NCBI GenBank assembly: GCA_016183325.1
Contig: JACPEV010000008.1
Coordinates: 472 to 64,471, forward strand
Origin: Candidatus Curtissbacteria bacterium
GTDB lineage: Bacteria > Patescibacteriota > Microgenomatia > Curtissbacterales > GWA2-41-24
DNA: 64,000 nucleotides
Direction of reading: 5' to 3'
Below the pieces are notes generated by a model. The model was not told the origin of the DNA. It saw only the letters and a list, made by a program, of their open reading frames with translations, and did no database searches. Shown here piece by piece: positions 39,026 to 55,896 of this stretch. The translations under genes were made by a program, and so were the position numbers. How positions within the stretch are numbered: position 1 is the first letter of the stretch; every line of letters begins with the position of its first letter.

Positions 39026-40621
39026 TCATACTAATTGAGCCGTCAATTTAGGCTGTATAACTTCTGGTAAATTTACTTTTTGAAATTTGGCGTAGGGGGT
39101 TTTTGGGTATTCAGGGTCGTAAGGACGCATATCAAAAGGGTTGTTATAGTCAAGACAGCCTGTACAGTGTGATGAATGCATTTCTTCCTGGGTCATGTTA
39201 AGCGACCTGGCCATACCACCAAGAGTAAGATAGTGCAGTGAAGATACATTCAGTTTACGCTTGATTTGATCTTCTGACAGAGTTTTATAATTACCATGCT
39301 TATCCTTTGTAACTGCTCCAAGCTCATCTCTTGAACCAATATTGACACCCAAAAAACAAGGATTGACAAACCGCGGGGCTAAAAATCGACAATGGATAGT
39401 TTTTACTCCAATTTTCAGAAGATGGGCGACCAGAATACTGAAGGTAGTCAGACGAACTGCCGTATCGTCGATTAAGTATATGGATTTGCCGATGAGGCTG
39501 GGCGATATAAAAAACTTTTTTTCGACATCTTTTTTCCTAAGATACGGATCGTCTTCAATGAAAGAACGTTTGGCGTGATCATATCTCTCTTTAACCAGAC
39601 CTCTTTTGTATCTAAATTTGAGTTTGGGGGACAGTTTATTTGCCAGCGATTCGTAAAAAGCGTAAGCTCCGGGATTGGCGGTATCTGGTACGGCAACCAC
39701 ATAATCGATGGCTTCGATAGTCTCTCTTCTAATCTTTTGTGATTTGATCCTGGCGTATTCTTCATTTGCTAGTTGACTGCCCAAACTTTCCCGATTTTGG
39801 CCAATGACTCCATCCCAAATAGAAGTCTCATGGGAAAAATACAGTTTTTCAAAAACACAAAAACTTCTTTTTTGAGGCATCAAATACTGGGCGATTGTAA
39901 CGCCGGTGCTATCTGCAATTAACATCTGTCCGGCTTCGATTTTTTGGCTGTGAGGAATGTTAATCCTGTCAAGTGCACAAGTTTCAGAAGCAACGAAGGC
40001 ATGGCCGTTGTCTTGGCTCCAAACCAGCGGTCTGACTCCCCAAGGATCTCGAAGTGCAATTAACTTGTCGTCACCGGTGACCATAACAAGCGAGAAAGCT
40101 CCTTTGACGTCGCAGAGGCTCTGGGCGATTTTTTGCCGCCAGGTAAAGCCGGGAGCCGTGACAATTAGCCAGGCAAGAATTTCTGAATCGGAATCAGATT
40201 CGAGTCTTATTCCAAATTTAGCCAATTTTCTGCGATGTTTTTTCAAATCGACAACATTACCATTGTGACCAAGTGCCACCTCCCAACCTTGATGTGAAGC
40301 GTGAAATGGTTGAGCGTCACAATCGCGACGCCGGCTGCCTTCTGTAGGATACCTTAGGTGGGCAATAGTAATTTCGCCTTTTAGAGAATTCTGATCCACA
40401 ATTTCTGTAGAACTAAAGATTTCGTTGAAAGCTCTGGCTTCTTTGTAAACTCTTAAGATTTGCCCTTGGGGCTTGACAGCGATTCCTCCACCGTTTTGGC
40501 CACGATGTTGAAGGGCCTTGCCCATTTCGATTGCTACAGCCGAGGCGTTAACGCCCTGAGGCGCTAAGCAACCGGCTACTCCGCAGCGATCGTAGGGTTT
40601 GTCAGGAAGATCCAGATTCAT
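39026..40621 (-). CDS. amidophosphoribosyltransferase-like protein (class II GATase + PRTase domains)
   Basis: N-terminal propeptide then CGVAG nucleophile. PRTase motif IYLIDDTAVRLTT. C-terminal Cys cluster. 531 aa. Confidence 0.55.
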   Translation of the reverse strand: MNLDLPDKPYDRCGVAGCLAPQGVNASAVAIEMGKALQHRGQNGGGIAVKPQGQILRVYKEARAFNEIFSSTEIVDQNSLKGEITIAHLRYPTEGSRRRDCDAQPFHASHQGWEVALGHNGNVVDLKKHRRKLAKFGIRLESDSDSEILAWLIVTAPGFTWRQKIAQSLCDVKGAFSLVMVTGDDKLIALRDPWGVRPLVWSQDNGHAFVASETCALDRINIPHSQKIEAGQMLIADSTGVTIAQYLMPQKRSFCVFEKLYFSHETSIWDGVIGQNRESLGSQLANEEYARIKSQKIRRETIEAIDYVVAVPDTANPGAYAFYESLANKLSPKLKFRYKRGLVKERYDHAKRSFIEDDPYLRKKDVEKKFFISPSLIGKSIYLIDDTAVRLTTFSILVAHLLKIGVKTIHCRFLAPRFVNPCFLGVNIGSRDELGAVTKDKHGNYKTLSEDQIKRKLNVSSLHYLTLGGMARSLNMTQEEMHSSHCTGCLDYNNPFDMRPYDPEYPKTPYAKFQKVNLPEVIQPKLTAQLV

Positions 40622-40723
40622 ATTTGTGGCCTTTTCCAGTTCTTAGTATCTGCTGCAAAATACTTTTTGTCAATTTCCAACACCTAGTTTTGTTTCTAAT
40701 TTTTTCGCCAGTCCCCCTGTCTT

Positions 40724-40795
40724 GACTCTCTCCTGCCTTGCACTGTCACGCTCCCGTATCGTGGCAGTATCGTCCTCGAGGGTCTGGAAATCAAC
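40724..40795 (-). repeat. decayed copy of the glyS 3' end (left island boundary)
   Basis: gactctctcctgccttgcactgtcacgctcccgtatcgtggcagtatcgtcctcgagggtc is about 70% identical to glyS 3'-end sequence at 51913-51975 and 51024-51085. The cacg-tcccg-atcgtg palindromic core is retained. Confidence 0.45.
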
Positions 40796-40878
40796 TTATT
40801 AAGGAAACGTTCCGCGAGTCAAGAGAGGAAAATTAGGGCAGGAAAACTGAAAGAAAAATTGCTTGAACTTTATTAATC

Positions 40879-41487
40879 TTACAGCCTTTCCATTTCTCTA
40901 TTTGCTTGTTCCGGACTAATGCTAGCAATCTGTTGGCTTTCTTTTGTCACGTAAAGGGTATCAGAATCATCGAGAAATTTGAGTTGAGATCTTTCGTATT
41001 TTCCCAGGCCAAGGTATTTGGCAATATCTCCTTCTCGTTGTTTAAATTCTTGGTCTTCAATTCTCAATTCCGGAACGTATGAATTGTTTGTAGGATCAAA
41101 ATATTCTACTTTTAATAATCTGACACAAGCCCCAACGCCGGTTTCATCCTGGGATACGATTAGCGACTGGCAAATCTGCCGCATCGGAGGATTCCAAAAA
41201 TCGCCAGGCTTCATATCGTTCATTGCTCTATACCTGAAACCTACCCTATTTTTTTCAAAAGCTTCAGCTTCGGAAATCCTCACCCGCCTATTGATTCCAA
41301 TAAGAGAGATTACTATTCTGCCATCTTTTGAAAGCTCTTCAGTTAATTTTATGACATTATTTTGGAATAATTGTGACGTTCTTGATTCAGGTGATTTGTC
41401 TTCTGGTCTTTCAGCCATTTTTTCATCCTCTTCCATTCCCGCTGATAAGTTGTCGTCTTGCTTCTCTAATGATATAAGAAAATGCAT
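40879..41487 (-). CDS. hypothetical protein ending in the shared C-terminal tail (ISPEQANREMERL); island gene 6
   Basis: The annotated start overlaps the helicase by 64 nt. Likelier starts are MEEDEK at 41436 or MAERPE at 41418, the latter 5 nt after the helicase stop and preceded by GGAAGAGGA. Confidence 0.5.
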   Translation of the reverse strand: MHFLISLEKQDDNLSAGMEEDEKMAERPEDKSPESRTSQLFQNNVIKLTEELSKDGRIVISLIGINRRVRISEAEAFEKNRVGFRYRAMNDMKPGDFWNPPMRQICQSLIVSQDETGVGACVRLLKVEYFDPTNNSYVPELRIEDQEFKQREGDIAKYLGLGKYERSQLKFLDDSDTLYVTKESQQIASISPEQANREMERL

Positions 41488-44400
41488 TCAACCTATCTTT
41501 GGGCATTCTATCGGTAACTGATAAATCTTGCAAAATCCGAATGCAGAATTCTTCTGCTTGAGGCCAATCCCATCCTGTGATTCTCGAAATTGGTCGGATT
41601 AAGTTTGTCCTGTAATCTCTGAAGTCTTGTATGGAAACTCCTCGTAAGAAATCTAAAATTGAGTTTTCCCTTTTAATAAGGGGTTCACCAGTCAAGATAA
41701 GTTCAACATCTTTATCAGTATCCACACTACGAATCTCTATTTCCGGCTTCTGTGTAGTTGTGACGTTTGGATTATATATTTCAAAGTGATCAAGCTCTAA
41801 ACGGAGCTGTGGCGACGGATAATCTGTTCCAGGACTCTTCCTCACTCTGCGGTTTGCCTTGGGACCTATGCTTAACCAGGCGCGTGAATCAGTAAGTAAT
41901 TCCAAGTCAGACAGGGTTAGACCTTTTAAGTCTACTTCTCCAACTTTTTGCGCCAAAATCGACCATCCAAGGCTTTTCTTGGTGCCGAGCTTACTAATTC
42001 CAATTGCACGCCCGCTATATTCTTGGTCAACCTTAAAACCAAAATGTTCTTCAAGAGCTGCTGTAAATTTTCTGAACTTGTCATCGTCTAAAACTCTTTC
42101 CGGTAAAGTTAGGGAGAAATAACCACTATTTTTAAGGACTCGGTTGCTTTCCCTTAGTATCTTCGTTCTTTCGGAATCTTCTGCCTTCACAGAACCTTTA
42201 TTTGAAAGTGAGGAATAATGTAGAACAAAAGCATTATCCAAAAAGTCATACGTATCATCCCGAGACTCTAGCTCATCGGCTCTTCCGAATTTTGCAGTAC
42301 CACCAAATATTCTTGCTTTTTCCCATCCTACTTGCAAAATATATGGATTAATGTCGACGTTATCAATACCCCTTTTTAGCTTTCTTTGCAGAAGAAGGGT
42401 CCCTGCGCCAACGCTCAAAATTTGACTTTCCTCTTCTGATTTAGTTTTAATCAGATGGCTTACGAAGTCAGCATTATATCCTGTTATATGATACTCATCT
42501 CTTCCTTCATCATAAAATTTAACCGCGATTCTTTGCGGATCTATCTCGTTTGTATGAAACATTTCAAGCGTCCTCTCTGCCCCCGCACCTGTCATGTTAT
42601 GGAAAGCTGTTGAGAGATATAATGAATCTTTGCTTCTAATTTCAATCCTATTCCCAAGTCTTTTAGAATCAAAAAATTCTTGTTGATCTGGATGTAAAAC
42701 AATTCCGGAAAGTGCCATTCTTGAAAGTAGATATGAGTAAACAACTGCTTCACCTTTACCTTGATCAACCATATCTTTAACTTCCAAAACCAGATTTTCG
42801 ACAGGGACAAGTTGTCCTTGTCTTTGCGATCTTCCTACCATCTGTTTTAACTGTTGAAAATGCCAGGGGGGTCCTAAGAAAATTTTTCTTACACCTACAA
42901 TCTCCCTGTCTTGTTCGTCCTTCAGGGCGTTTAATGTGTAATCCCTACTTTGATAGGTGGCTTCAAGCGTGACCAACATAAGCGCAGAACTTGGATTATT
43001 GACCCATCGAGAAATGACAGCTTCCCGCGGCCTTCCCACCCCGATTGTTCCATCTATCATTAATATGTCTTCAGGTGAACATAGACCGCTTACCCAAGAT
43101 TTTAGGAGAGTCATCAACTTAAAATCATTTATCGTATCCAATTCGTAACTTGTATATAAATTTGTTACTGACCCATCCTCTTGATTTATTGCTCGCTGCA
43201 AGACATCACCAGTTCGCCCTTGTCTACGTGAAGGAGAAATAATAAATACTTTGTCTCTAACTATTCTTCCATCTTCTGACTGCCTCCATGTCAACGAATC
43301 CGTGACGAGTCGTTTTAACGTTTTATATTTGGTTGATAACTTCCGACTCATCCAAAATTTTCTTAATTCAGCCAGGTCGGCATCAGAAGAATCTTTGGTA
43401 AGTTCTTCTACTAATGTATCCACTCCATTTTCTAAAAGCTCACTAAAGAAACAGGATAGTACTAAATCTCCCATTCCAATTTCGACTAGTCGATCTGCGC
43501 TTAAAAAATCTTCAGATTTTTGTGGAGAATCTACTCCCTTGAACTCTTTCCATTTGGGAACTATGAGTTTTAATATATTCAAAGTTTCGTCAATATCCAT
43601 TTCCTGAATTTTATCTTTTGCCATTCTTCGAATCTCCACTTTAGTGAGAAGTGGGTTCAGCAATGCATCTTCCAATAACCTAATCTTATTAAGAGGATTT
43701 GTTTGTATGTTGTCTTCAATGAATTGATGCAAATATTCTTCAAAGGGAGATGCTTGAATACTAAAAGGTGTGTATCTGAATTCTTGTACTCCGGTGGCCT
43801 GTTCCCACCTAAACATTCTTTTTTCTCCAATTAATGACATGTATACCAGGTCAGGGCGATTTAAATGGGCATCGCTAAAGGTTTTTCTTCTTGCAGTCGA
43901 AAATTCATGAACAGGAACATATTCAGATGGATATAGAATTGACATAGGCACATTTAAGTTGGCAAGTTTACTTCTGATTGGAGTGGCAGTAAGTCCCAGG
44001 ATCGGCGCATCTTCGTTTCCGGTTCTTTCTTGATAATTTTGACGTATTTTGCCGATTAAATGGAGTAATGCCTTAGAAGAAATTGCATCGTAATTATTGA
44101 AGTTATCAATCTCGTCAATTATTGAAGCGTCTACTTTTGCTGATTTAATTAGGGTTTCCTCAAGCAAAGGAAGCAAATTTGAATCACTTTGCGTGTCTTC
44201 CAGTAATTCTTGGCTAATAACTATATATTTCTTGCCTGAGTTTGCCGCATTTTTCAGCTCACCAGATCCTTTGACAATGTAAACTTGATCCGGATTGGTA
44301 AACGCAACATTTGATTCAATTTCCCATGTTTCTTTCCCTGCTGCTGTTGCAAAAACCAACACTCTTGCAGCATCCGAGTTTTCCATAGCTAGGTAAGCAG

Positions 44401-45394
44401 CGCTAGTTTTTCCAAGTCCCGTATCAGCTGCCAAAAGCCTTGTATTATGCCTTACAAAGTCGTAACAAAATGTTCTCTGTTCAAATGAGGGGAATGGCCT
44501 GGTTTGGTCTTTGACTTGAATTTGGGATTTAAATTCTCCTTTCAGCGGGAAAGTGGCTATATCATAAAATCGTTCGTGAATTTTTTCCAAAAATTGTTTT
44601 TTATCGGGATCTGTGCATTGCTTGATCACCTCTTCAAATTGTTTCATTCCCTCTTGAAGCCCGGCGTCCGTAATACTTCTTGAAAGGCTTTGTTCCAAAT
44701 AATTTTGAACTAAGTTGTATTTAATTGCATATATATTTCTAAAAATTTTCTTGGGGACTCTGTCTATCATGTCAACGATATCCATGTCTCTTTGAGGCAT
44801 AGTTCCAGTAAGAAGTCCAATATAAGGTCTGATAAGAGCAGTGGTTACCCAGGCACGGAGTTCTTCAATTTTTTTGGCATCCGTGACATTCTCGAATAAT
44901 TCCAATGTCATGATTTGACCTACTACCTCTAGAGGCCAACCGGCATCGACAAGCTCTTTGACATTAATATTCTCTGCCAACTTTGTTTCTACGACCTTTT
45001 GCGCTTCTTCATCCTCATGAGTCCCTCGCTTTATATGTCCTTTTTCTACTAGTAAAAGCTGCAAGTCTTCATACAATTCTTTGCCATGTGCTTTAATTTC
45101 TGCTTCTGCTTGCAGGCGTTCCTCATCAGATTTGAGTTGAATTACCATATCATCTCGAGGGATAAAATTCCTGAGAAGGAAAAGGGGGTCTTTTTGTTGC
45201 GCGTATATTCCACCTTCAATAAGCTTTTTCGCATAGTAAAATTTATGTCTAAGACGTGTTGAAGATGCGTAATTAGCTTCAAAAGTGCTACTTCCTTGCC
45301 AGTTTAGAACCCGATCTTCAAAATCGGGTGGTAGGATTATTTCTCCTTGTGGAGCCTCGTTCAGTCTCTCAATCATTAGGACTGATTTTATCAA
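41423..45394 (-). CDS. large SF2 helicase fused to a class I SAM-dependent methyltransferase-like domain (N-terminal ~320-aa unknown domain, C-terminal ~250-aa unknown domain)
   Basis: Helicase motifs I ADTGLGKTS, III LTATP and VI QMVGRSQRQGQ. MTase motifs I ILSVGAGTLLL, II DDTYDFLDNAFVLH and the RVLKNSGYFSL block. The annotated start is TTG; the ATG at 45376 (MIERLNEAPQG) is likelier. Confidence 0.7.
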   Translation of the reverse strand: MIKSVLMIERLNEAPQGEIILPPDFEDRVLNWQGSSTFEANYASSTRLRHKFYYAKKLIEGGIYAQQKDPLFLLRNFIPRDDMVIQLKSDEERLQAEAEIKAHGKELYEDLQLLLVEKGHIKRGTHEDEEAQKVVETKLAENINVKELVDAGWPLEVVGQIMTLELFENVTDAKKIEELRAWVTTALIRPYIGLLTGTMPQRDMDIVDMIDRVPKKIFRNIYAIKYNLVQNYLEQSLSRSITDAGLQEGMKQFEEVIKQCTDPDKKQFLEKIHERFYDIATFPLKGEFKSQIQVKDQTRPFPSFEQRTFCYDFVRHNTRLLAADTGLGKTSAAYLAMENSDAARVLVFATAAGKETWEIESNVAFTNPDQVYIVKGSGELKNAANSGKKYIVISQELLEDTQSDSNLLPLLEETLIKSAKVDASIIDEIDNFNNYDAISSKALLHLIGKIRQNYQERTGNEDAPILGLTATPIRSKLANLNVPMSILYPSEYVPVHEFSTARRKTFSDAHLNRPDLVYMSLIGEKRMFRWEQATGVQEFRYTPFSIQASPFEEYLHQFIEDNIQTNPLNKIRLLEDALLNPLLTKVEIRRMAKDKIQEMDIDETLNILKLIVPKWKEFKGVDSPQKSEDFLSADRLVEIGMGDLVLSCFFSELLENGVDTLVEELTKDSSDADLAELRKFWMSRKLSTKYKTLKRLVTDSLTWRQSEDGRIVRDKVFIISPSRRQGRTGDVLQRAINQEDGSVTNLYTSYELDTINDFKLMTLLKSWVSGLCSPEDILMIDGTIGVGRPREAVISRWVNNPSSALMLVTLEATYQSRDYTLNALKDEQDREIVGVRKIFLGPPWHFQQLKQMVGRSQRQGQLVPVENLVLEVKDMVDQGKGEAVVYSYLLSRMALSGIVLHPDQQEFFDSKRLGNRIEIRSKDSLYLSTAFHNMTGAGAERTLEMFHTNEIDPQRIAVKFYDEGRDEYHITGYNADFVSHLIKTKSEEESQILSVGAGTLLLQRKLKRGIDNVDINPYILQVGWEKARIFGGTAKFGRADELESRDDTYDFLDNAFVLHYSSLSNKGSVKAEDSERTKILRESNRVLKNSGYFSLTLPERVLDDDKFRKFTAALEEHFGFKVDQEYSGRAIGISKLGTKKSLGWSILAQKVGEVDLKGLTLSDLELLTDSRAWLSIGPKANRRVRKSPGTDYPSPQLRLELDHFEIYNPNVTTTQKPEIEIRSVDTDKDVELILTGEPLIKRENSILDFLRGVSIQDFRDYRTNLIRPISRITGWDWPQAEEFCIRILQDLSVTDRMPKDRLNAFSYIIREARRQLISGNGRG

Positions 45395-45413
45395 ATTTAG
45401 CCTATAGTTTCAA
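45385..45413 (-). promoter_or_regulatory. promoter P2 for the helicase gene: TTGAAA-N17-TAAAAT, 8 nt before the ATG (near-leaderless)
   Basis: Minus strand reads TTGAAActataggctaaatttgaTAAAATcagtcctaATG. It is almost identical to P1 at 50852-50880. The shared upstream motif CTAACAAGTGCCTTA is at 45498-45512. Confidence 0.5.
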
Positions 45414-45529
45414 ATCTGAAAAGTGATGTCTGCTCTTCTGTTTGCAAAATCTCAAATTAATTTTACGGTCCATGCTGATCCTTTGCATGATATTTACCTA
45501 ACAAGTGCCTTAGAGAGCATTATTGATTT

Positions 45530-47524
45530 TCATGCCTCTAAAAGCTTTACTAGTTGTTCGTTTGCCTCATCAGGAGAAATTGGTTGTGCTTTATCTCGAT
45601 TATTTTGTTTTTCTATTATTTCAACTATTAGTTGAATCAGCTCAGGAGCGTAGTGCTCAATAGGATGTCCTCCCTGATCGAGGTAAATCTCAAACCATTC
45701 TTGATGATCTTTCCTAAATTCTTTCGCTATCTGATCAATTACTCTTGAATTTTTTTTACGTAAATGATCCATTATGCCTCCTCTTGTCATCCAACCTTCC
45801 GGTGCTCGGCCATATCGTGTGAGCTCTTTGATAATTAACTCTTTCAATTCTGGTGAGTAATGCTCACGAATTCTGCCGTTTGAATCTACATAAAACTGAT
45901 GCCACTCGGGATGATTTTCTTTAAATTTATCGGCTCTATTACCCACAATTAAAGTGCTTCTCTTAATTTCTTTTGCTAAAGCTTCTTTTGTTATCCAGCC
46001 ATCTGGTTGATTTTTAAAGTTTGCGACATGCTCGATAATTAATGCAACGAATTCTGGTGAGTAATAATTATTGGGATGACCAGTCCGACTCAGAAATGTT
46101 TTGAACCAATCCAGATGCTCTTTTTTATATTTTTCTGCTAACCTTTCAACAAATTTCGGCGATTTTTCAACCAGTTCTGCTAAGCGCGCATTTGGGACCC
46201 ATCCTTCAGGAACAATATCGTATTTTGTAAGTTCATTTGTTAAGAAGGATACGAATTCGGGTGAATAATGATCCCGAAGAAACCCATTTCTAGCAACATA
46301 ATTTTTGGCCGATTCCGGATGTTGATCTCCAATTTGTTTAATTAATCTTTCAATAGGCCTCCTGGTTTTTCCTAATCGTTTTGCCAATTCTGTAATCGTT
46401 ATCCACCCTTCAGGTGCTTCGGTACCACCCTTTAATTCTTCTTCGGAAAATTCTATACCCAAAGGACTAAATGCAGATTTGAGGATCTCAAGCCGTAAGT
46501 TTTCGAATGATGGGTGCTCGCGACGAGGATTTCCAAACATTCTGCTGAAGTTCTTTTTTGATCTAACTTTTTCCCTAACGAATTGCTTTGCTTCTTCAAT
46601 TCTTCCTGTAATGACTGTCCCGTCTTTATCTAAGAAGGTTTCTATAAAATCTGGAAATTCTTGCAAAAATATCTCTCTTACGGCTTCAAAAATTTCTTCT
46701 CTATCTCTAGTATGCCAAATCCTCGGGTGAGCAAAATCGCTGTTATTAAATTGTACTCCCCAGGGTTTAAATGCTTTTTTAATAGCAGTTATGTAGCTTC
46801 CCTGGAAATAAGGTACTGCACCTTTTTGAACGGGTGTTCCACCAATAATTTGCGCAAATTTAATCTGATTTCCAATTTTCTCTTTAATAAATTCTTTCGC
46901 CGTTTCTTGGAAATTACTTTTTATTTGTCCATCATCATCTCTTGGAAATAAATCATTAAATTCAGGAAAGTTTTCAAGAAATAATCCTTGAATGTTGCCA
47001 ATGCCTATTTGTTCATTCTCTTCGGTGGTTTTGTCTGGAAATTTCCAGCGAACTTGTCCTATTGCATCTTTTAAAATTATTGGCCTATTTTTATCGCCAT
47101 TTGGTGAAGTATCTTTTGCAATTTCATTTCCTGGTAGCTCAATTCCCCAAGGAGCGAAGGATTTTTTAAAAACAACTAGGTAAGAGCCTTCAAAATATGG
47201 GCAAGATCTCTTATCACAAGCAACTCCAAAAGACATATAAAATTGTCTATTTTTGAAGACGTGGCTAAGTATAAATTCTCTTGCTTGTTCTACCCTGTTA
47301 CCATCAACTTTACCATCCTGATCTCTAAGAAATTGTAAATTAAAATCTGGAAACTTTTCTAGAAAAAGCGCTTGCACATTTCTAATGCCCAGCCGCTCAT
47401 TTTCCTCCAAGGTGTTGCCAGGTAGATGCCAACGTATTCGGCCTCCTCTATCCCTAAGAACTGTTGGCTTAGATATAGGAGAATATTCTGATAGTGACTG
47501 AGGATTTTCTTCTTCTTTTATCAT
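45530..47524 (-). CDS. repeat-rich protein with shared C-terminal tail (…PISPDEANEQLVKLLEA); island gene 4
   Basis: 664 aa. Two N-terminal copies of a ~110-aa 'RDRGGRIRWxLPGN…FLExFPxFN' domain plus a degenerate third. Then four tandem ~68-aa 'PEGW-T…LA…R…HxEW…HYSPE' repeats that look HTH-like. Confidence 0.55.
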   Translation of the reverse strand: MIKEEENPQSLSEYSPISKPTVLRDRGGRIRWHLPGNTLEENERLGIRNVQALFLEKFPDFNLQFLRDQDGKVDGNRVEQAREFILSHVFKNRQFYMSFGVACDKRSCPYFEGSYLVVFKKSFAPWGIELPGNEIAKDTSPNGDKNRPIILKDAIGQVRWKFPDKTTEENEQIGIGNIQGLFLENFPEFNDLFPRDDDGQIKSNFQETAKEFIKEKIGNQIKFAQIIGGTPVQKGAVPYFQGSYITAIKKAFKPWGVQFNNSDFAHPRIWHTRDREEIFEAVREIFLQEFPDFIETFLDKDGTVITGRIEEAKQFVREKVRSKKNFSRMFGNPRREHPSFENLRLEILKSAFSPLGIEFSEEELKGGTEAPEGWITITELAKRLGKTRRPIERLIKQIGDQHPESAKNYVARNGFLRDHYSPEFVSFLTNELTKYDIVPEGWVPNARLAELVEKSPKFVERLAEKYKKEHLDWFKTFLSRTGHPNNYYSPEFVALIIEHVANFKNQPDGWITKEALAKEIKRSTLIVGNRADKFKENHPEWHQFYVDSNGRIREHYSPELKELIIKELTRYGRAPEGWMTRGGIMDHLRKKNSRVIDQIAKEFRKDHQEWFEIYLDQGGHPIEHYAPELIQLIVEIIEKQNNRDKAQPISPDEANEQLVKLLEA

Positions 47525-48871
47525 TCATTCCTCTAAAAACCTTCTTAATTGTTCGTTGGCTTCGTCGGGGGAGATTGAATCCTTTTCTATCTTTTCTTTT
47601 GGTGAATAGTTGCCCCCTTTGAGCGCGTCCATTATATCTTCTTGATTGTAAAGCTCAACAACTTTACCAGAAATGTCGCGACCGGTAATAACATTAATAT
47701 TTCTTCCACGAAGGTGGCGACGCATAGTTGCTGTTTGAAGCCCAAATGATTTTCGAAAATAAAATTGGGGCACCCATGTTTGATTGTTTTCATCGGTGTA
47801 GAGTCCCGTCACCTTATCCACTCGGGGTAAGTTTAAAAATTCGCTGATCTTTTCTGAAGCTTTCGATTCGTCGAAAAGGACTACTTCCGCACCAACCCTA
47901 CTTCTACCTTGTATCTGGGGGACATCAACAAGTAATGATGATAACGAAGTTCCACTAACCTGGAATCTGCTTCGAAGCACTCTTCTAGATACCCAACTGG
48001 AAGTACTGTTTTCTGTATACGAGCCTGTTTCGTTATTTACCCTAGGTAGCAGCAAAAAATTATTTATTTGACTTGTCACTTCGGGCACATTGTAGAGAAT
48101 GGTTTCGTGGCCAACCCCATCTCTGCCAGCTATAGATCGAACTCCTTGCATGAACTTTGATAGTTTTTCAGCACTAAGACCGTGATTAACTTTAAAGTAA
48201 TTAGCAGGGGCCCAACATTCTCCGTCTTCGTTTTGATATTGACCGATTGAACTATCAACTTGCGGGAGCGCAAAAAATTCGTTAATTCTTCTTGAAACTT
48301 CAGCTTCATTGTAGAGTCTAATTTCATGACCTTTAAGACCTACTCCTGCTCTTGATGGAACGCCGATCAAACGTTTAGACAAAGTTGGTCCGTTGATTTT
48401 AAAATTCTTTCTAAAAAAATAGGAGGAGGCCCAATTATTACCGTTTGCGTCCGTCCAGCGAGTTTCCTTATCAACCTTCGGTAAAGAAAGGTCGAGTCCC
48501 CAAGGATTGAAAGATTTTTCTAAAACGAAGTGATATGATCCTTGAAAATACGGGACTGTATTTTTCGAAAAAGGGGATTCTCCTGTTAGAGCAACAAACT
48601 CTTGTCTTTTACCTATTCTATCTAATATAAATTCTTCTGCTTGACCTCTTTTATCCTCTATAATTTTTTCATCTTCGCCCTTGGGGAAAAGTTCATTAAA
48701 CTCTGGATATCTTTCTAAGAAGATTGCTCGAATGTTTTTTATTCCAAGCATTAAGTTCTCTTCTTCAGAGTTGCCTGGAAGCGACCAGCGAATTCTGCCT
48801 CCTTTATCACGAAGAATTGACGGTACTTGGATTTCTTGATTTTGTGTTAGTAATGTTTCTTTTGCCATCAA
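47525..48871 (-). CDS. repeat-rich protein with shared C-terminal tail (…SISPDEANEQLRRFLEE); island gene 3
   Basis: 448 aa. One RDKGGRIRWSLPGN domain, then four ~70-aa 'W…YF-K-F…LS-L…GR-GVG-E…LYNE-EV…I-EFL-LPRV…TG-YT' repeats. The true start ATG overlaps the upstream stop (TGATG). Confidence 0.55.
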   Translation of the reverse strand: MMAKETLLTQNQEIQVPSILRDKGGRIRWSLPGNSEEENLMLGIKNIRAIFLERYPEFNELFPKGEDEKIIEDKRGQAEEFILDRIGKRQEFVALTGESPFSKNTVPYFQGSYHFVLEKSFNPWGLDLSLPKVDKETRWTDANGNNWASSYFFRKNFKINGPTLSKRLIGVPSRAGVGLKGHEIRLYNEAEVSRRINEFFALPQVDSSIGQYQNEDGECWAPANYFKVNHGLSAEKLSKFMQGVRSIAGRDGVGHETILYNVPEVTSQINNFLLLPRVNNETGSYTENSTSSWVSRRVLRSRFQVSGTSLSSLLVDVPQIQGRSRVGAEVVLFDESKASEKISEFLNLPRVDKVTGLYTDENNQTWVPQFYFRKSFGLQTATMRRHLRGRNINVITGRDISGKVVELYNQEDIMDALKGGNYSPKEKIEKDSISPDEANEQLRRFLEE

Positions 48872-49728
48872 TTCTCCAAAAGTCTTTTTAGCTGTTCGTT
48901 AGCTTCGTCGGGGGAAATAGTTGATTCTGCAGGTCTGTAAAGTCTTGTGTCTCCTTTGTGAAATATCCTGCGATCGATTAATTTTTGTTCTCCTTCTTGA
49001 TTAACTAAGAAAATTTCTAAAAATGTATTGCTTTTTTCATCGACTTTTGGTTGAAAAGCTAGCTCTTTTCCGTAAGACGTTCGTATTTCTTTATTATTTA
49101 ATACGACGGCTTTACCTCTAACCATTCCTATATGAAAGCTGTCTGTTCGAGTGAAATTCCACGTCCAAAATTCTTTCAGCATGTGTGGTTCTATCTCTTT
49201 TCTTCCACCGAGGTAATCTAAAAAAATCTGTCTTTCAAAACCATGCCAACTTTCTACTTTTAGGTTTTGAGCGTCAATCCTAAACGATTGAATTAGTTCA
49301 TTAAAATCTACTACATCCCTTAATCCTAATTCGTGGAAATCAATCCATTGATATAATTTATTTTCGTCTTCTCTAGGAAAAGCTAAGATTATTCCGCTGT
49401 TGCGGATAATTTTTTGCGATAATGGATTGAGGCTAAAGATTACTGTCCTTCCTTGAATTCTGCCACCTATGTAAAATCTTGTTCCGACTTTATTATCACC
49501 TCTGGCTTCTTCTATCAAAAACGGTGGAATTTCTTCAAAAGGAAATCTTCCTCTGAGAAAAGCGTGCAGAAAAGCTACGCCCTCCTCCTGGTCTACTGCG
49601 TATATGGGTGAAGGTTTCCATGGATCTGGCTCTACTTGCGAAGGATCAGACCTGTCTCCCAATTCCAAATCTATTATTTTAATGAATCGTTTACTATTGG
49701 GACTTTTTGGTTGCATCTCTGGATTCAT
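48868..49728 (-). CDS. hypothetical protein with shared C-terminal tail (…TISPDEANEQLKRLLEN); island gene 2
   Basis: 286 aa. The upstream gene's final GAGGAA (Glu-Glu) codons form the SD, and its TAA stop overlaps this ATG (TAATG). Confidence 0.5.
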   Translation of the reverse strand: MNPEMQPKSPNSKRFIKIIDLELGDRSDPSQVEPDPWKPSPIYAVDQEEGVAFLHAFLRGRFPFEEIPPFLIEEARGDNKVGTRFYIGGRIQGRTVIFSLNPLSQKIIRNSGIILAFPREDENKLYQWIDFHELGLRDVVDFNELIQSFRIDAQNLKVESWHGFERQIFLDYLGGRKEIEPHMLKEFWTWNFTRTDSFHIGMVRGKAVVLNNKEIRTSYGKELAFQPKVDEKSNTFLEIFLVNQEGEQKLIDRRIFHKGDTRLYRPAESTISPDEANEQLKRLLEN

Positions 49729-50843
49729 TATTCCTCCAAAAGTCTTCTTAACTGTTCATTGGCTTCGTCAGGGGAAATGATTACATCTACCGAATTTTTA
49801 TTTGTGTCACTAAGACCTAGCTTTGCTCTCAAAGCTCTAATACGACCTGGATAAGCTCGAATTGCACCCCATAGGTCATACCTGTTTTTTGCTTGCAATG
49901 CATTTCTTGTAAGTAATCCTTCCTGCTGGAAGAATTCCCAAGCCTCTTTTTCTATTACTTCTGAAGTCCAATATCCTTTCTTCCTTATTAGTCTAATATC
50001 AAGCCCTAGATCTCTTTTTAAGCCTGTCATTTTCCCAGGATAAAATTTACCAATAGCTGTTCTAAGATCGCCCCTTCCTTGCCTAGCTAATAAATTTGTT
50101 GTTAAATGTTCCTCTTCTCCTAAAAAAGCTAAAGCTGCTTTTCGGATTTCTTCTGGGGTCCAGTAATGATATGGCTTTGCAGATGGTCCTAAACCTAAAT
50201 CTTGTTTTAACTGCCTTATTCCACCTGGATAATGTCGTAGGATAGCATTAAGTAAGTCATTTCTATGGCCCTCGAAAAGCAATCGGGCGCTAATTTTTCC
50301 TTCTTGATCTAGAAACCCTTTGGACTCCTCGAAGATCATTTCCTTTGTCCAATAATTTCCAGGTTTTTTAATTATCTTAAGACCAAGATTTCTTCTGAGC
50401 CCCACCATTCCATCTGGATAATATTTAGCTACTGCAGCGACAAAGCTTGATAAGCCAGCTTTTACCAATGTTCGTTGTTTTAAGTCTGAGCCTTCTGTAT
50501 CCAATCTACGACCCTCGTGTTCTATATTGGTTAGCTCCCGCCAGAATCCGGATGGTCTTGATGATGAAGGTACGCCAAGATTCACTTTTAAACCTGAAAA
50601 ACCTCCAGGATAGTAATGAACAATACCATAAAGCAGATCAAACTTTCCTGCACGGCTCAAGTTAACTCTTGTAAGATCATTTCCTTGTTGAATAAATCCA
50701 GTTGCTTCTGCAAGAACAACCGCGCCTAATAATCCTTGATCTTCTAATAACCTCCAACGGATCCTACCTCTATCATCTCGCGGTATGTCAATAGATTGGA
50801 AATCTTCCTCGGTCTTAGTAGCAAAAACAGTTCTTTCAGCCAT
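49728..50843 (-). CDS. repeat-rich protein with shared C-terminal tail (…IISPDEANEQLRRLLEE); island gene 1
   Basis: 371 aa. N-terminal RDDRGRIRW motif, then about five ~68-aa 'L…AI…YPGG…L…LGL…YWT-EEI…F…EG-L' repeats. Confidence 0.55.
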   Translation of the reverse strand: MAERTVFATKTEEDFQSIDIPRDDRGRIRWRLLEDQGLLGAVVLAEATGFIQQGNDLTRVNLSRAGKFDLLYGIVHYYPGGFSGLKVNLGVPSSSRPSGFWRELTNIEHEGRRLDTEGSDLKQRTLVKAGLSSFVAAVAKYYPDGMVGLRRNLGLKIIKKPGNYWTKEMIFEESKGFLDQEGKISARLLFEGHRNDLLNAILRHYPGGIRQLKQDLGLGPSAKPYHYWTPEEIRKAALAFLGEEEHLTTNLLARQGRGDLRTAIGKFYPGKMTGLKRDLGLDIRLIRKKGYWTSEVIEKEAWEFFQQEGLLTRNALQAKNRYDLWGAIRAYPGRIRALRAKLGLSDTNKNSVDVIISPDEANEQLRRLLEE

Positions 50844-50851
50844 GATGAGGA

Positions 50852-50880
50852 ATTTTACAATATTTGGCCTATAGTTTCAA
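50852..50880 (-). promoter_or_regulatory. promoter P1 for the island operon: TTGAAA-N17-TAAAAT, 8 nt before the ATG
   Basis: Minus strand reads TTGAAActataggccaaatattgTAAAATtcctcatcATG. The shared upstream motif CTAACAAGTGGCTTA is at 50947-50961. Confidence 0.5.
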
Positions 50881-50973
50881 GTGGGCCCATGATATTATTA
50901 CTGCCTGTAGTTTATTAAACGAGTATATTACTCGCTTGATAGTTATCTAACAAGTGGCTTACTGAGTAGGCGG

Positions 50974-51140
50974 TTAATGATATATGGATAATTTTTGCGC
51001 AAGTTCTTTTTGGAGATTTTCGACCTTCACTCTTTCTTGTTTAGCCGTATCACGATCCCGAATCGTGACGGTGTCGTCTTCGAGTGTCGCAAAGTCTATG
51101 GTTATGCAGTAGGGTGTTCCGATTTCGTCCTGGGTGGAGC
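50974..51140 (-). pseudogene. displaced 3'-terminal fragment of glycine--tRNA ligase (att-like duplicate; right island boundary)
   Basis: The minus strand encodes …[52 protein letters not shown]. The intact glyS ends …[49 protein letters not shown]. Nucleotide identity is about 85% over ~110 nt. The fragment has no start codon. Confidence 0.65.
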
Positions 51141-51180
51141 CTTGAATAGGCTTAAGGAATGTTATATTATTATCTATATC

Positions 51181-51372
51181 ATGGGAATCATTGATCTAAG
51201 AAGAGTCTTGAAAAATCGTCGTTCCGGGTGGATCTCTATTTCGAAAGACTACAAAAGGGTTATTGCCAAAGACCAAACCTTAGGGGGTCTTGTCAAAAAA
51301 CTGCAAAGGCTTGGCAATCCCGAAGGATATCTTGTCAAGGCAGCGAACGATTATTCCAGATATGTGGGCTGA
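51181..51372 (+). CDS. small partner protein of the retropepsin cassette, copy 2 (divergent)
   Basis: 63 aa (…[19 protein letters not shown]…). It occupies the 3' part of the ORF-track frame 50995-51372. Its stop overlaps the next ATG (TGATG). Confidence 0.4.
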
Positions 51373-51899
51373 TGAAACCTGTTATTTTGCAGCCACCAAT
51401 AAAGATCTGGTATAAAACGCTTCCCGGATTTTCAAAAATCATTTGGCCAATACTTGATATCAAATTGTCTATAAATAGTTTCGTTCTTCCTCAACCTATC
51501 TTTTCGCTTGTAGATTCCGGTGCGAGTATTTCTATAATCCATCCACAGATAGCCGAGATATTAGGATTTGACCGAGAAAGATTAGGCAAATCGCGATCGT
51601 CAGGAAAATCAGCCAGCGGTGATTATAAATCTTGGATTTTACCGAATCTTGTTGAAGTAAATATTTATGGCCATTTGTTTAATTTTAGGTTCGAAGTATT
51701 AGATAATCCAAATCTTATGTGGCCATGTATTTTGGGAGAAGATTCAATCTTTCAAGTTGCCAAGGTTGATTTTTCAAAATTCAGAGGTTATTTTGAATTG
51801 AGGATTAGACTAAAAGAAGATAAATCTAGGAGTTTGGCCGAACTTGCTAAAAACACGTACGGTGCATGGAAAGAACCGGTTAGGAAAATTTCTTCATAA
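51372..51899 (+). CDS. retropepsin-like (clan AA) aspartic protease, cassette 2
   Basis: FSLVDSGASISIIHPQIAEILGFD. Start MKPVIL is coupled to the upstream stop. The ORF-track N-terminus (51228-) is probably not translated. Confidence 0.55.
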   Translation: MKPVILQPPIKIWYKTLPGFSKIIWPILDIKLSINSFVLPQPIFSLVDSGASISIIHPQIAEILGFDRERLGKSRSSGKSASGDYKSWILPNLVEVNIYGHLFNFRFEVLDNPNLMWPCILGEDSIFQVAKVDFSKFRGYFELRIRLKEDKSRSLAELAKNTYGAWKEPVRKISS

Positions 51900-53409
51900 G
51901 AATATTTGCAAGTGTGTCCACTTTTACTCTTTCCTGTTTGGCCGTGTCACGATCCCGGATCGTGACAGTGTCGTTTTCCAAAGTTTCGAAGTCGATGGTG
52001 ATGCAATAGGGTGTGCCGATTTCGTCTTGGGCGAAGTAGCGTTTGCCGATGTTGCCGCGATCGTCCCAAGCAACAGGTTGCAGTAAATGGTGAATGGATA
52101 ATTGTGAATAGAGCAAGCGGGCTTTTTTGACGAGATCGGGTTTATTGGCAAGAAGCGGGAAAACGGCGGCTTTAAAGGGGGCGAGTTTGGGGTGGAGTTT
52201 AAGAATTACTCTCTTTGCTATATCCCCCGAACCCGGTTTGGAGGATTTTTGCAAACCGGGTTCGTCTTTTGCTGGTTCCTCTGTATAAGCATCGATTAAG
52301 AAAAAAAGCGCGGCGCGATCGACTCCTCCCGAAGTTTCGATGATATATGGAAGGTATTTTTTATTTTTCGCAGGCTCAAAATAGGTCATATCGACGCCGG
52401 AATGTTTTTGATGCTGAGACAGATCCCAGTCTCCCCTATTGTGAATTCCTTCAAATTCTTTCCAGCCTCCGCCAGAGGCGGATAGATCGTATTCAATATC
52501 CCAGGCGTCTTTGGCGTAGTGAGCACGCTCGCCTTCTTCGTGCTGACGAAACCTAAGTTTGTCTTTTTTCATTCCGAGCTCCAAGTACCATTTCATGCGC
52601 TCGTTTTTCCAGTATTCGTACCATTTTTCGGATTCTTCCTTTTCTGGTTTGACATAATATTGAAGTTCCATTTGTTCAAATTCACGGGAGCGAAATGTAA
52701 AGTTACCGGGAGTAATTTCGTTTCGGAAGGCCTTGCCGATTTGGGCAATTCCGAAAGGAATTTGGACTCGAGTGGAATCGAGGATGTTTTTGAAATTGAC
52801 ATGGACACCTTGAGTGATTTCACCGCGAAGATAAACTTTTTGTTTGGCGTCTTCAACAACGCCGAGTTTGGCTTCAACAAGGAGATTGAATTTTTTAGGT
52901 TCTGTAAAATTGTGCTCTTTATCTTTGGTGGGATTTTCTACGATTTCTTTAAAATCATGCTTATTTTTACCATCCATGCAGTAAATGAACGGTAAAATTT
53001 CGCTTTGCTCTTGAGATAATGACCAAGAAGTTACATTTGTTGAGATCGAACTTGTCTTTGTAAAAACCATGTGCTTCAATTTCTCTTTTGCTTCTGTAAC
53101 ATTATCAGCCCTGAACCTCTTATGACAAATTTTGCATTCTACAAGTGGATCAGTAAACGCTTTGACATGACCGGAGGCTTCCCAGACTTTGGGATTCATG
53201 AGAATTGCAGTGTCGATGCCCACTACATCGTCCCTACCGTAAACCATCGACTGCCAAAAAGCCTTTTTGATGTTGTTTTTGAGCTCGACTCCGAGAGGAC
53301 CATAATCCCAAGTTCCCCCAAGTCCGCCGTAGATTTCAGAACCGGGATAAATAAAGCCACGACGCTTTGCGAGAGAAACAATTTTTTCTAAATTCGTAAT
53401 TTTATCCAC
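51880..53409 (-). CDS. glyQS: glycine--tRNA ligase (dimeric class II GlyQS type)
   Basis: 509 aa with class II motifs and an anticodon-binding C-terminus. Confidence 0.9.
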   Translation of the reverse strand: MDKITNLEKIVSLAKRRGFIYPGSEIYGGLGGTWDYGPLGVELKNNIKKAFWQSMVYGRDDVVGIDTAILMNPKVWEASGHVKAFTDPLVECKICHKRFRADNVTEAKEKLKHMVFTKTSSISTNVTSWSLSQEQSEILPFIYCMDGKNKHDFKEIVENPTKDKEHNFTEPKKFNLLVEAKLGVVEDAKQKVYLRGEITQGVHVNFKNILDSTRVQIPFGIAQIGKAFRNEITPGNFTFRSREFEQMELQYYVKPEKEESEKWYEYWKNERMKWYLELGMKKDKLRFRQHEEGERAHYAKDAWDIEYDLSASGGGWKEFEGIHNRGDWDLSQHQKHSGVDMTYFEPAKNKKYLPYIIETSGGVDRAALFFLIDAYTEEPAKDEPGLQKSSKPGSGDIAKRVILKLHPKLAPFKAAVFPLLANKPDLVKKARLLYSQLSIHHLLQPVAWDDRGNIGKRYFAQDEIGTPYCITIDFETLENDTVTIRDRDTAKQERVKVDTLANILMKKFS

Positions 53410-53507: not shown

Positions 53508-54341
53508 TTATTGTGACGATACTACTACAAATGTGGCGAAGTTGGAAATGACGGCGCTTATGGTCTTGTTTTTCTCGTTGAAGGTTGACTCTAACTCTTC
53601 TATCTGCCCGTCATTATGATTATATGCATATATCTTTGCGTCCTCGTCTGATTTTATTTCGAGCTTGGCATTTTGTAAGAACTTAGGAGGAATTGAAAAG
53701 ATTCCGTAAACCGGAAGCTTGGCTGATTTAAATTTATCGTCTTTGGGAATTCCTACTGTGTCTGCTGTAATAACCCAATAATCTTTATCGAGACTTAAGC
53801 TAGAAACCGTGATATTTCCGAGTGAATCATGGATTGAGTTTGTTTGACCTGTGACACGCATTATGTCCCACTTTGTTTCAGAAAGATATTCGGTTTCACC
53901 CTTGAACATGTGCATCGTAAGTTTGCCGTCTGTAATGCCTTGATCAGGGCTTCTGACTTTCTTAGAAGCAGTGCCTAAAAGAATCGATTTTTTGAATTTC
54001 GCGTCTTTAGTATTAACATCTGTACCTGTTGCGCCCCTTTCTAATTTTTGTCCAGGAACCTGAGGGTTATCTGCAAGATAAATCAGTTCATATTCGATTT
54101 TGTCAAAACTGGCCATATTTTCAACAGAAATGACAATTTCTACACCGTCTGATGTCGGGGTTAAAGTTACATATGGTCTTTCTTCTGTTTTAAGGTTTGC
54201 GACTTCTTTTACCTCGTTTGAGGCAACATCTGTTTCGATTTCTTTTGGTTTTTTTTGGAAGATAAAGAGAAAATAAATGGCAGTTATTATGACCAGTAAA
54301 CTTATAGCGGCAATAATATAGGTGCTGCGCTTAGATTCCAT
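53508..54341 (-). CDS. hypothetical membrane-anchored extracytoplasmic protein
   Basis: 277 aa, N-terminal TM segment, β-rich. Confidence 0.35.
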   Translation of the reverse strand: MESKRSTYIIAAISLLVIITAIYFLFIFQKKPKEIETDVASNEVKEVANLKTEERPYVTLTPTSDGVEIVISVENMASFDKIEYELIYLADNPQVPGQKLERGATGTDVNTKDAKFKKSILLGTASKKVRSPDQGITDGKLTMHMFKGETEYLSETKWDIMRVTGQTNSIHDSLGNITVSSLSLDKDYWVITADTVGIPKDDKFKSAKLPVYGIFSIPPKFLQNAKLEIKSDEDAKIYAYNHNDGQIEELESTFNEKNKTISAVISNFATFVVVSSQ

Positions 54342-54963
54342 TTAAAAATCGTGAGGTGGTTAGCTTTGATTGTGTCAGGCCCTCAATTAATCTATCAAGA
54401 AATAATAAAATGTTGGAGTAAGAATTTTGAGTCAATTTAATTTTTCCCTTGATGGTTTCAAAATTGTCTTTCTCAAATGTGGCAAGGATGTACTTTACTT
54501 TTGGATTTTTAAGATAATGACTAGTAAAAAAGCCAAGGCTTGAAAGAAGTTTAATTTTGAATACACACGAAAGCAGAGAAAATTGTTCGTCTTTTTCTAT
54601 TCTTTTTAAGAACTGCACAAGAAGAATGAAAACTTCTAGATTCTTTTGATGGGATGCTGTCAAATTTTCAACGATTTCCAAAAGATGATAGATGCGATTG
54701 GCGCGCTCTTCGGTGAAATTGGCGATGCCAAAAGCGCGTTTGGTTTCGGCTTCTGTCACGAGATCAATGTTTTTACCGCGGGCAACAAAAAGTTTGCACC
54801 AATTGCCAAGTTCAATGTGGCCGGCCTTTTTAGATCGTGGACGACGGGCACCTTTGGCGATTGCCGTGATTTTGCCGTGGTCGCGGGTGAAGATTGTCAA
54901 AAGCCTGTCCGCTTCCCCAAAGTTGCGCTTTTTGAGAATTACTCCCTCGGTCGCAAAGTACAT
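54331..54963 (-). CDS. recO: DNA repair protein RecO
   Basis: The N-terminal OB fold (GVILKKRNFGEADRLLTIFTRDHGKITAIAKGARR) is typical of RecO. Confidence 0.8.
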   Translation of the reverse strand: MYFATEGVILKKRNFGEADRLLTIFTRDHGKITAIAKGARRPRSKKAGHIELGNWCKLFVARGKNIDLVTEAETKRAFGIANFTEERANRIYHLLEIVENLTASHQKNLEVFILLVQFLKRIEKDEQFSLLSCVFKIKLLSSLGFFTSHYLKNPKVKYILATFEKDNFETIKGKIKLTQNSYSNILLFLDRLIEGLTQSKLTTSRFLNGI

Positions 54964-55092
54964 ACCACTATTGTATCAAGTATCATGGATCAAGTTTCAA
55001 GTTTTGATAAAATCAGCATTACCTACTTATCAAGGTATTCTAAATCCGGTTTGGAATAGCTTTACAAATCAGGATTTCGACGGTATCTAATT

Positions 55093-55146
55093 CCCTACTC
55101 GCCAAGCTAATCCGAACCCGGTTTGGTCTACGTTGGCGAGCAAGGG
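55093..55146. repeat. REP-like hairpin flanking the RAYT gene (left)
   Basis: ccctactcgccaagctaatccgaacccggtttggtctacgttggcgagcaaggg is the near reverse complement of 55844-55896. ctcgccaa/ttggcgag forms an internal stem. Confidence 0.55.
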
Positions 55147-55821: not shown

Positions 55822-55843
55822 ATCTTGATCTTAATCGAGTATT

Positions 55844-55896
55844 CCTTACTTGTCAACGTATTCCGAACCGGGTTCGGACTAGCTTGGCGAGTAAGG
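55844..55896. repeat. REP-like hairpin flanking the RAYT gene (right)
   Basis: ccttacttgtcaacgtattccgaaccgggttcggactagcttggcgagtaagg contains the perfect palindrome ccgaaccgggttcgg. Confidence 0.55.

Follow-up and report, generated by a model that had tools for sequence, protein, structure and literature searches.

Three copies of the glyQS 3' end around a retropepsin-fold cassette and a six-gene unit in a Candidatus Curtissbacteria genome: a candidate case of two successive insertions into an essential gene end

Introduction

Two described systems come close to the arrangement reported here. In fungal mitochondria, hybrids formed with mobile open reading frames (mORFs) consist of the gene core, an inserted foreign C-terminus, the mobile ORF and the native C-terminus, marked C-star (PMC3630166). 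In streptococci, elements occupy the ends of fda, ftsK, lysS or tRNA genes, and among them are integrase-less cis-mobilizable elements (CIMEs) that are flanked by attachment (att) sites and undergo tandem accretion (PMC5704250). Here we analyze a 64,000-nucleotide stretch of a Candidatus Curtissbacteria genome (assembly GCA_016183325.1, contig JACPEV010000008.1; hereafter, the window), in which the 3' end of glyQS, the gene for glycine--tRNA ligase (GlyRS), is present in three copies. An earlier inspection of the letters and predicted ORFs of this stretch (the sequence-only reading) had drawn attention to a duplicated GlyRS C-terminus next to a small cassette that encodes a retropepsin-like protein and a small partner. 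We propose that the island of 11.1 kb at this site results from two successive insertions into the glyQS 3' end, with each unit integrating through homology between the host gene and the gene end that it carries, and we assign this reading a probability of about 0.5.

Three glyQS tails and the layout of the island

On the minus strand, the glyQS body is followed by tail B, which is the live end of the gene, the retropepsin cassette, tail A, a six-gene unit of about 10 kb, tail C and purF (Table 1). The island is thus composed of two units, namely the cassette between B and A, and a 10.2-kb block between A and C (hereafter, unit 2). The GlyRS of the window is identical in sequence to the NCBI Candidatus Curtissbacteria protein P0001, and an exact-sequence look-up of this protein returned no further contig.

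For fragment A, the similarity to GlyRS is confined to the C-terminal end of the protein (TIGR00389, E 1e-18; HGTP_anticodon, E 7e-13), and its frame opens after a stop codon, with ATG, GTG and TTG all absent ahead of the region of homology, in accord with the sequence-only reading that saw a start-less GlyRS C-terminal fragment beside an intact glyQS. The similarity of A and B likewise persists under alignment (blastn E 5e-22, 51020-51134 against 51917-52031, 82.6% identity), and the ORF list agrees that the small partner and the retropepsin-like gene are the only genes between the two copies. Several details of that reading had to be revised. The nucleotide identity, given as about 85% over about 110 nt, is 82.5% across the 38 shared codons and 76% across 154 nt aligned without gaps; the peptides, described as identical for 38 residues, match at 35 of 38 (the differences being A/E, D/N and E/D). 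Instead of a crossover just inside the stop codon, the alignment reveals a duplication of the whole 52-codon segment, with an abrupt onset of homology at QDEIGTP, 52 codons before the stop, that extends through the stop codon and includes synonymous differences throughout.

The distribution of these differences is informative. Within the 38 shared codons, the 21 base differences are split 2/1/18 over codon positions 1/2/3, for a third-position excess with P about 1e-6; 16 codon changes are synonymous and three are non-synonymous, and the synonymous ones are scattered along the entire segment. Neutral decay would be expected to place about 47% of the changes at third positions, versus the 86% observed (P about 3e-4, a hand calculation), and fragment A retains every residue that is near-invariant among 119 GlyRS orthologues. 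Because the differences are found mostly at third codon positions, A and B diverged as working genes in separate lineages, and it follows from such coding-type divergence that one of the two ends came from another lineage. The codon alignment thus shows one of these ends to be foreign to this lineage, and the same pattern suggests that fragment A was a working tail until recently.

The final 14-17 residues of A and B differ strongly, also in length. Among the 119 orthologues, GlyRS proteins of different lineages vary likewise at the C-terminal end, and both tails fall within this range, so that the divergent ends would simply reflect the naturally variable GlyRS C-terminus. Accordingly, of the proposal that an incoming element supplied a replacement tail, the cassette as an insertion, the foreign origin of one end and the younger age of the gene-attached copy are retained, whereas the tail divergence as the mark of a crossover is not. 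The comparison with orthologues that had been suggested for identifying the ancestral tail cannot rank A and B, as identity to the nearest relative is no more than about 73%. The G+C content at third codon positions is 0.55 in B, 0.46 in A and 0.42 in the gene body, a difference that is not significant at about 50 codons.

The sequence-only reading overlooked the third tail, C, and hence the nested three-tail island. Copy C covers positions 529-563 of the 565 positions of the TIGR00389 model, is changed at residues otherwise near-invariant in the 119 orthologues (it now reads TATIRERDSAR), and terminates at a TGA that overlaps with the purF -35 box, TTGACA. The same overlap between the glyQS stop and the purF TTGACA is present in another Curtissbacteria genome (L055), where, as in the Logan contig L056, the site is unoccupied and the genes are arranged as recO, a 282-aa gene, glyQS, purF, mraZ and rsmH. 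The order recO, 282-aa gene, glyQS, purF, mraZ was found in L055-L061, and the flanks of the window match it, with recO (54331-54963), a 277-aa gene and glyQS on one side and purF and mraZ beyond the island. The location of copy C at the ancestral glyQS/purF junction, together with the unoccupied L055, implies that positions 40796-51879 (11.1 kb) are inserted DNA. Copy C would therefore be the original and oldest tail, still located at the old junction, and from the order C, A, B, we infer that B is the newest tail and A its recently displaced predecessor.

The glyQS/purF junction varies in Curtissbacteria and appears as a hot spot for different inserts. In L053/L054, a distinct insert of 3.5 kb (four genes, 6378-9932 in L053) is found at this junction, without a clear tail duplicate. 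In other genomes, an unrelated convergent gene encoding 158-163 aa overlaps the glyQS stop (L057, 5193-5669; L060, 5308-5799). Genomes with B-like tails (P0040, P0041, P0060) were examined as possible donors; what follows glyQS in them is such a convergent 158-163-aa gene and not the cassette.

Unit 2 is absent from the unoccupied glyQS-purF loci L055/L056, and its proteins have no relatives in any of the fetched loci. The 1323-aa protein gives weak, below-cut-off matches to helicases and methyltransferases; in Pfam searches, no recombinase was found among the unit 2 proteins, nor was there any LAGLIDADG, GIY-YIG or HNH match.

The other five of the six proteins (202, 664, 448, 286 and 371 aa; 40879-50843, minus strand) share a C-terminal tag of about 16 aa of the ISPDEANEQL type (..ISP[DE][EQ]AN[ER][EQ][LM]..L.E), with DNA copies that are 86-88% identical, as well as N-terminal motifs of the RDRGGRIRW type. 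None of the five belongs to a Pfam family above the cut-off and four have no match at all; in the 664-aa protein, the only hits are two weak ones to helix-turn-helix families, both below the cut-off. The tag might serve these proteins as a shared signal for targeting or docking.

Table 1. Features of the glyQS-purF region of the window (positions in the window; aa, amino acids)
Feature	Position	Strand	Basis
purF-like amidophosphoribosyltransferase gene, ancestral downstream neighbour of glyQS	39026..40621	-	GATase_6/7 domains
Copy C, third glyQS 3' fragment, 41 codons and stop	40670..40795	-	tblastn E 3e-7; TIGR00389 E 4.6e-8
Unit 2, putative older insert, six genes (202, 1323, 664, 448, 286, 371 aa)	40796..50973	-	ORFs
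Copy A, start-less glyQS 3' fragment, last 54 codons and stop	50974..51139	-	TIGR00389, HGTP_anticodon
Cassette promoter-like site, TTGAAT-17-TATTAT, left end of cassette	51142..51170	+	promoter scan
Small partner gene, 63 aa; stop overlaps retropepsin start (TGATG)	51181..51372	+	upstream partner in >30 loci
Gene for a 175-aa retropepsin-like aspartic protease with DSGA and ILGEDS motifs	51372..51899	+	PF13975 E 1.3e-5
Spacer between ancestral retropepsin end and glyQS stop codon	51829..51879	.	family ends ...RFRxDxN, then stop
Copy B, live glyQS 3' end, QDEIGTP to stop	51880..52036	-	alignment with A, codon analysis
glyQS, intact glycine--tRNA ligase gene	51880..53409	-	509 aa; NF003211 E 1e-182, full-length model match
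Palindrome GTCACGATCCGGGATCGTGAC within the glyQS codons for VTIRDRD	51945..51967	+	terminator scan; inverted repeat

The retropepsin cassette

The larger gene of the cassette faces glyQS in convergent orientation, with an overlap of 20 nt. Its product scores under the curated cut-offs of the respective families (26.1 versus 28.2 bits for PF13975, 14.4 versus 57.95 for TIGR02281). Several lines of evidence nevertheless point to a retropepsin fold. The LVDSGA sequence, which includes the catalytic D-[ST]-G-A motif, does not vary among 21 family members, and the ILGEDS motif of the family is likewise invariant; the family profile matches the protease domain of Ddi1 (E 1.6e-4); and in the AlphaFold model, the core is predicted with a local confidence (pLDDT) of 80-94 and is matched by Foldseek to HIV-1 protease, ApRick and Ddi1 (probability 1.0, E about 5e-6). 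Thus, despite the scores below the Pfam cut-off, the large cassette protein is, on the predicted structure, a retropepsin-fold protein. In this family, homologues of about 150 aa fall into 89 clusters, each of which ends in RFRxDxN. The window protein carries, in addition, a read-through extension of 25 codons into the glyQS antisense that is foreign to the family and is modelled with low confidence. The closest relative of this protein (P0124, L062), when considered as a counterpart, was found in a different context with no bracketing repeat.

The small partner belongs to no Pfam, NCBIfam, PADLOC or PHROGs family and has no nuclease signature; the homologue search retrieved a single database homologue. 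The retropepsin-like protein is similarly outside all PADLOC and PHROGs families, and no match to the retropepsin came up when viral contigs were scanned. The ORF of 125 aa at 50995-51372 had been interpreted as the antisense shadow of fragment A fused to the small gene, and this interpretation holds, given that the homologues start at its internal methionine and that the promoter-like site precedes the small gene. In the 48 loci that we fetched from genomes and metagenomes, a TTGACA-N17-TAxAAT promoter and the small gene are located ahead of the retropepsin gene nearly everywhere. As judged from its gene content, the cassette appears to be a unit of about 0.7 kb, consisting of a promoter, the 63-aa partner and the retropepsin-fold protease, without a recombination enzyme of its own. 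By analogy, its organisation suggests a selfish pair of genes like those of toxin-antitoxin modules; the neighbours of the cassette in other loci include VapBC, HepT/MNT and ImmA/XRE-type pairs.

The glyQS codons for VTIRDRD contain a palindrome with a 10-bp stem in both copies (at 51048-51070 in A). In copy B, where a T-rich run comes next on the plus strand, the terminator scan scores this palindrome as a terminator of the convergent transcript from the cassette. This hairpin would be terminator-like for a transcript that would be antisense to the glyQS 3' end. No RNA family was found by Rfam near the glyQS locus, and the window contains no tRNA genes.

The cassette in other Microgenomates

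Bracketing of the cassette by repeated target sequences is a recurrent feature. A direct repeat around the cassette within 260 nt is present in 10 of the 27 loci that are distinct, as opposed to 6 of 93 control placements (Fisher P 2e-4). The repeat sequence differs from locus to locus; the most frequent target is the 3' end of trpS, the last 9-16 codons of which are repeated in L007, L009, L011, L012, L020, L021 and L038. In L025, 137 nt of an ftsK-like end are repeated, and the repeats in L034, L041 and L008 are intergenic hairpins or promoters. Overall, the repeats span 27-160 nt and are imperfect, except for perfect or near-perfect copies in L008 (35/35 nt), L033 (56/56 nt) and L034 (46/47 nt), and the different targets have no motif in common. 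Repeats of gene targets invariably extend through the stop codon.

Among the fetched locus records, about 16 have trpS adjoining the cassette, and seven of these have a short copy of the trpS end after the cassette; the trpS-linked cassette is usually located between trpS and ftsH. The short copies differ mainly at third positions (18/13/39 over the three codon positions, P 1e-4), and in L038, all six differing codons are synonymous. Several copies of the target form arrays in L021, L010, L041 and L033; in L021 and L010, successive units are separated by trpS-end copies.

Identity of the retropepsin and identity of the linked TrpRS are uncorrelated (r 0.28). For example, L026 and L027 share 96% identity in the retropepsin and 82% in TrpRS, and L008 and L027 share 59% and 86%, respectively. 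This mismatch suggests that the cassette moves between lineages, repeatedly reaching the same kind of site. The polarity of insertion can be read from two sister loci. The block of L011 that consists of the trpS end and the cassette is present in L010 as a 5'-truncated fragment followed by the cassette, and the trpS body of L010 is now succeeded by another tail and two further genes. The comparison of L010 with L011 therefore indicates that the gene-distal copy is the older one and that new material enters beside the gene body, which agrees with how C, A and B are ordered in the window.

Small-cassette arrays separated by hairpin repeats of about 50 nt were observed in L041 (806-3265, with four repeat copies between the cassettes), L008 (2584-2618 and 4123-4157, a perfect 35-nt copy of the cassette promoter) and L033 (15-3407), and a second type of retropepsin-like gene, encoding 121-135 aa, is present in these arrays. 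Intein families (LAGLIDADG_3 and Intein_splicing) match three proteins of about 1,000 aa near trpS-linked cassettes in a scan that gave family counts only; by size, we take these to be the FtsH genes of L008 (5645-8890), L011 (7549-10776) and L026 (5688-8819).

Mechanism of insertion and alternative explanations

Alignment and gene order, taken together, show three glyQS tails in order, an unoccupied site in a relative, bracketing by target copies elsewhere and gene-distal copies that are the older ones. We propose that each unit carries the captured end of a conserved gene and recombines into the host through that homology, either by a Campbell-type single crossover of a circular form or by a double crossover from a donor that already has this arrangement, in which case the gene body and the displaced tail would form the two arms. 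Each insertion would leave the essential glyQS with a complete frame and would push the earlier tail downstream as a 5'-truncated fragment. Only segments that extend through the stop codon would yield viable integrants; because an internal segment would disrupt the essential gene, the duplicated gene segments would always end at the stop. Integration guided by homology would further account for repeats that are target-specific and variable in length, for copies that differ in the manner of orthologues, and for the lack of a recombinase beside the cassette.

Several observations weigh against this proposal. A and B share no identical nucleotide run above 11 nt, which together with the identity of about 82% makes for a poor substrate for RecA-type recombination, and several of the trpS repeats are only 27-48 nt long. 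The first capture of each new target end is unexplained, and neither a circular form nor an occupied/unoccupied polymorphism within one species was seen. In the comparison with the 119 orthologues, A and B look equally native and tail similarity is untied to gene-body similarity, so that the incoming copy among the two cannot be shown directly from these sequences. About half of the cassette loci are without a bracketing repeat. Finally, in a Pfam scan of 124 neighbouring proteins in which only recurrent families were listed, these families included no integrase, transposase or homing nuclease, and a lone integrase gene could thus be present somewhere in the cassette loci.

Within this general scheme, it is tempting to regard the small-partner/retropepsin pair as the cargo of undescribed, integrase-less cassettes of the Candidate Phyla Radiation (CPR), which would use a gene end as an address label, swap tails and stack. 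We consider this extension doubtful at present. Alternatively, the two cassette proteins might have an as yet unrecognised activity on which such movement depends.

Site-specific integration by a recombinase whose gene is located elsewhere in the genome or on a helper element is the alternative that survives best, and even so, we deem it unlikely. Under this explanation, both the 10-kb unit and the cassette would be CIME-like remnants, flanked by att sites and devoid of an integrase, that accreted in tandem at an attB site in the glyQS 3' end. The tandem layout, which recurs at trpS, fits the published definition of CIMEs and accretion (PMC5704250); the targets are conserved housekeeping gene ends (trpS, glyQS, ftsK-like); and copies B, A and C as well as the trpS repeats include the target 3' end and restore the reading frame, similarly to attL and attR. 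However, no integrase was detected in the cassette or in unit 2, nor does one recur among the 124 neighbouring proteins; the start of the duplicated segment varies (52 versus 41 codons in glyQS, 9 to 16 in trpS); and the targets share no core motif, with the identical core of A and B never exceeding 11 nt.

Local duplication of the target upon insertion, through a long staggered cut or template switching, would produce a repeat that is perfect at first, with the distal copy decaying subsequently and no foreign tail involved. The perfect or near-perfect repeats in L008, L033 and L034 and the variable length of the duplicated segment are compatible with such a process, which is nonetheless distinctly unlikely at glyQS given that 18 of the 21 differences between A and B are at third positions, that A keeps all invariant GlyRS residues, and that the last 14-17 codons differ strongly and in length; at trpS, the purely synonymous divergence of the L038 copies (6/6) speaks against it as well.

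Homing by double-strand-break repair, in which a nuclease cuts near the start of the segment and repair copies a foreign, cut-resistant tail along with the mobile genes, the displaced tail being the second arm, would yield the same architecture as the atp6, atp9, cox2 and nad3 hybrids (PMC3630166), and would also explain the synonymous recoding along the whole live tail and its sharp upstream boundary. We nevertheless judge homing highly improbable because the cassette encodes a retropepsin-fold protease and a 63-aa protein without a nuclease signature, unit 2 has no LAGLIDADG, GIY-YIG or HNH match in Pfam, and some of the targets are intergenic hairpins or promoters rather than genes.

An assembly artefact, whereby the contig of a metagenome-assembled genome fuses two co-occurring strains at the conserved glyQS 3' end, is scarcely credible: although four Logan contigs all end at 52042-52072, so that the joining of B to the gene body relies on the NCBI contig, these four independent assemblies (L001-L004) contain A, the cassette and B plus 6-36 further glyQS bases at 100% identity, the same architecture is found in unrelated genomes and assemblies, and the contigs end within the near-invariant WDDRGNIGKRY codons, where k-mers shared among species would presumably break unitigs. 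The possible causes of these contig ends include strain heterogeneity and k-mers common to co-occurring species. A transposon or insertion sequence was rejected, given the absence of terminal inverted repeats, the imperfect repeats of 27-160 nt, and the location of the sole transposase-like gene (Y1_Tnp, 55147-55821) outside the island.

Other features of the window

This IS200-like Y1 transposase gene is flanked by 54-nt inverted repeats (55092-55897). A Y1_Tnp gene is likewise located upstream of recO in L053/L054, and because of this shared position, the window gene may be a resident, repetitive extragenic palindrome (REP)-associated type rather than a recent insertion.

A second bracketed small-gene insert in the same genome occupies positions 9235-11102. 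A 61-nt direct repeat (9235-9295 and 11042-11102, 85% identity) surrounds 1.8 kb that contain a VapBC-like pair together with two unknown genes, and an MNT/HepT-like pair (8601-9228) immediately precedes this insert. Elsewhere, a 114-nt inverted repeat with 95.6% identity has its arms 13 kb apart (205-318 and 13436-13549), and an S-adenosylmethionine (SAM) riboswitch is predicted at 33156-33267 on the minus strand (44.7 bits versus the Rfam gathering threshold of 44.4).

Significance and comparison with known systems

If the proposed scenario is correct, aminoacyl-tRNA synthetase genes of the CPR serve as landing pads, and their C-terminal ends are repeatedly swapped for foreign versions; tail replacement of this kind would be a route to mosaic housekeeping genes. 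The presence of the bracketed cassette in many Microgenomates without a visible recombinase suggests a simple, possibly recombination-only spread of small selfish modules, which would suit lineages that lack the classical machinery of mobile elements. The glyQS locus appears as one instance of a recurrent and mechanistically unexplained insertion into the ends of essential genes, and also offers a concrete case for studying the role of a stand-alone bacterial retropepsin with an obligate small partner.

In the searchable literature (DUF5678, retropepsin combined with toxin-antitoxin, CPR mobile elements), we found no earlier description of the cassette or of the bracketing pattern. With type II toxin-antitoxin systems, the cassette shares two small, co-directional, overlapping genes, a promoter of its own and a patchy, mobile distribution. 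Unlike these systems, it encodes a retropepsin-like protein that is no established toxin and belongs to no PADLOC or PHROGs family; we found no mention of a retropepsin-like toxin in the toxin-antitoxin survey of Makarova (2009). The cassette protease has the fold and the DSGA and ILGxD motifs of ApRick/APRc, Ddi1 and SASPase, and differs from them in being a stand-alone protein of 150 aa with an obligate 63-aa upstream partner and a mobile context. The hairpin repeats of about 50 nt between the cassettes of L041 invite a comparison with integrons. At trpS and in the window, however, the repeats consist of coding ends of genes, and no integrase was seen in the Pfam scans of unit 2 and of the neighbouring proteins, which did not include a dedicated attC search.

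The resemblance to the streptococcal elements is in the layout. As in the accretion of CIMEs and of integrative elements that are conjugative (ICEs) or mobilizable (IMEs), successive elements stack at the gene-attached copy (PMC5704250). In contrast to CIMEs, the window units have neither a cognate integrase nor a fixed crossover core, the boundaries of the repeats vary, and the cassette is only 0.7 kb long, with no conjugation or mobilisation genes seen.

The closest parallel is with the mORF hybrids of Allomyces (atp6) and Glomus (atp6, atp9, cox2, nad3), which have the same layout as the window island and in which, as in the window, the copies diverge in DNA and are conserved in protein. 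In the window, by contrast, the mobile genes encode a retropepsin-fold protease and its partner, with neither a LAGLIDADG nor a GIY-YIG nuclease among their products; the insertion resides in a bacterial chromosome; and cassette and target gene converge instead of being fused in frame. The targets of the cassette also include intergenic sequences. Thus, the gene-hybrid architecture as such is already known, from fungal mitochondria and from the elements at gene 3' ends in Firmicutes; what differs here is the cargo of a retropepsin and its partner, the CPR host, the variable boundaries, and the fact that no nuclease or integrase was found. If the cassettes indeed move without an integrase, they would be the nuclease-free bacterial counterpart of the mitochondrial mORF gene hybrids.

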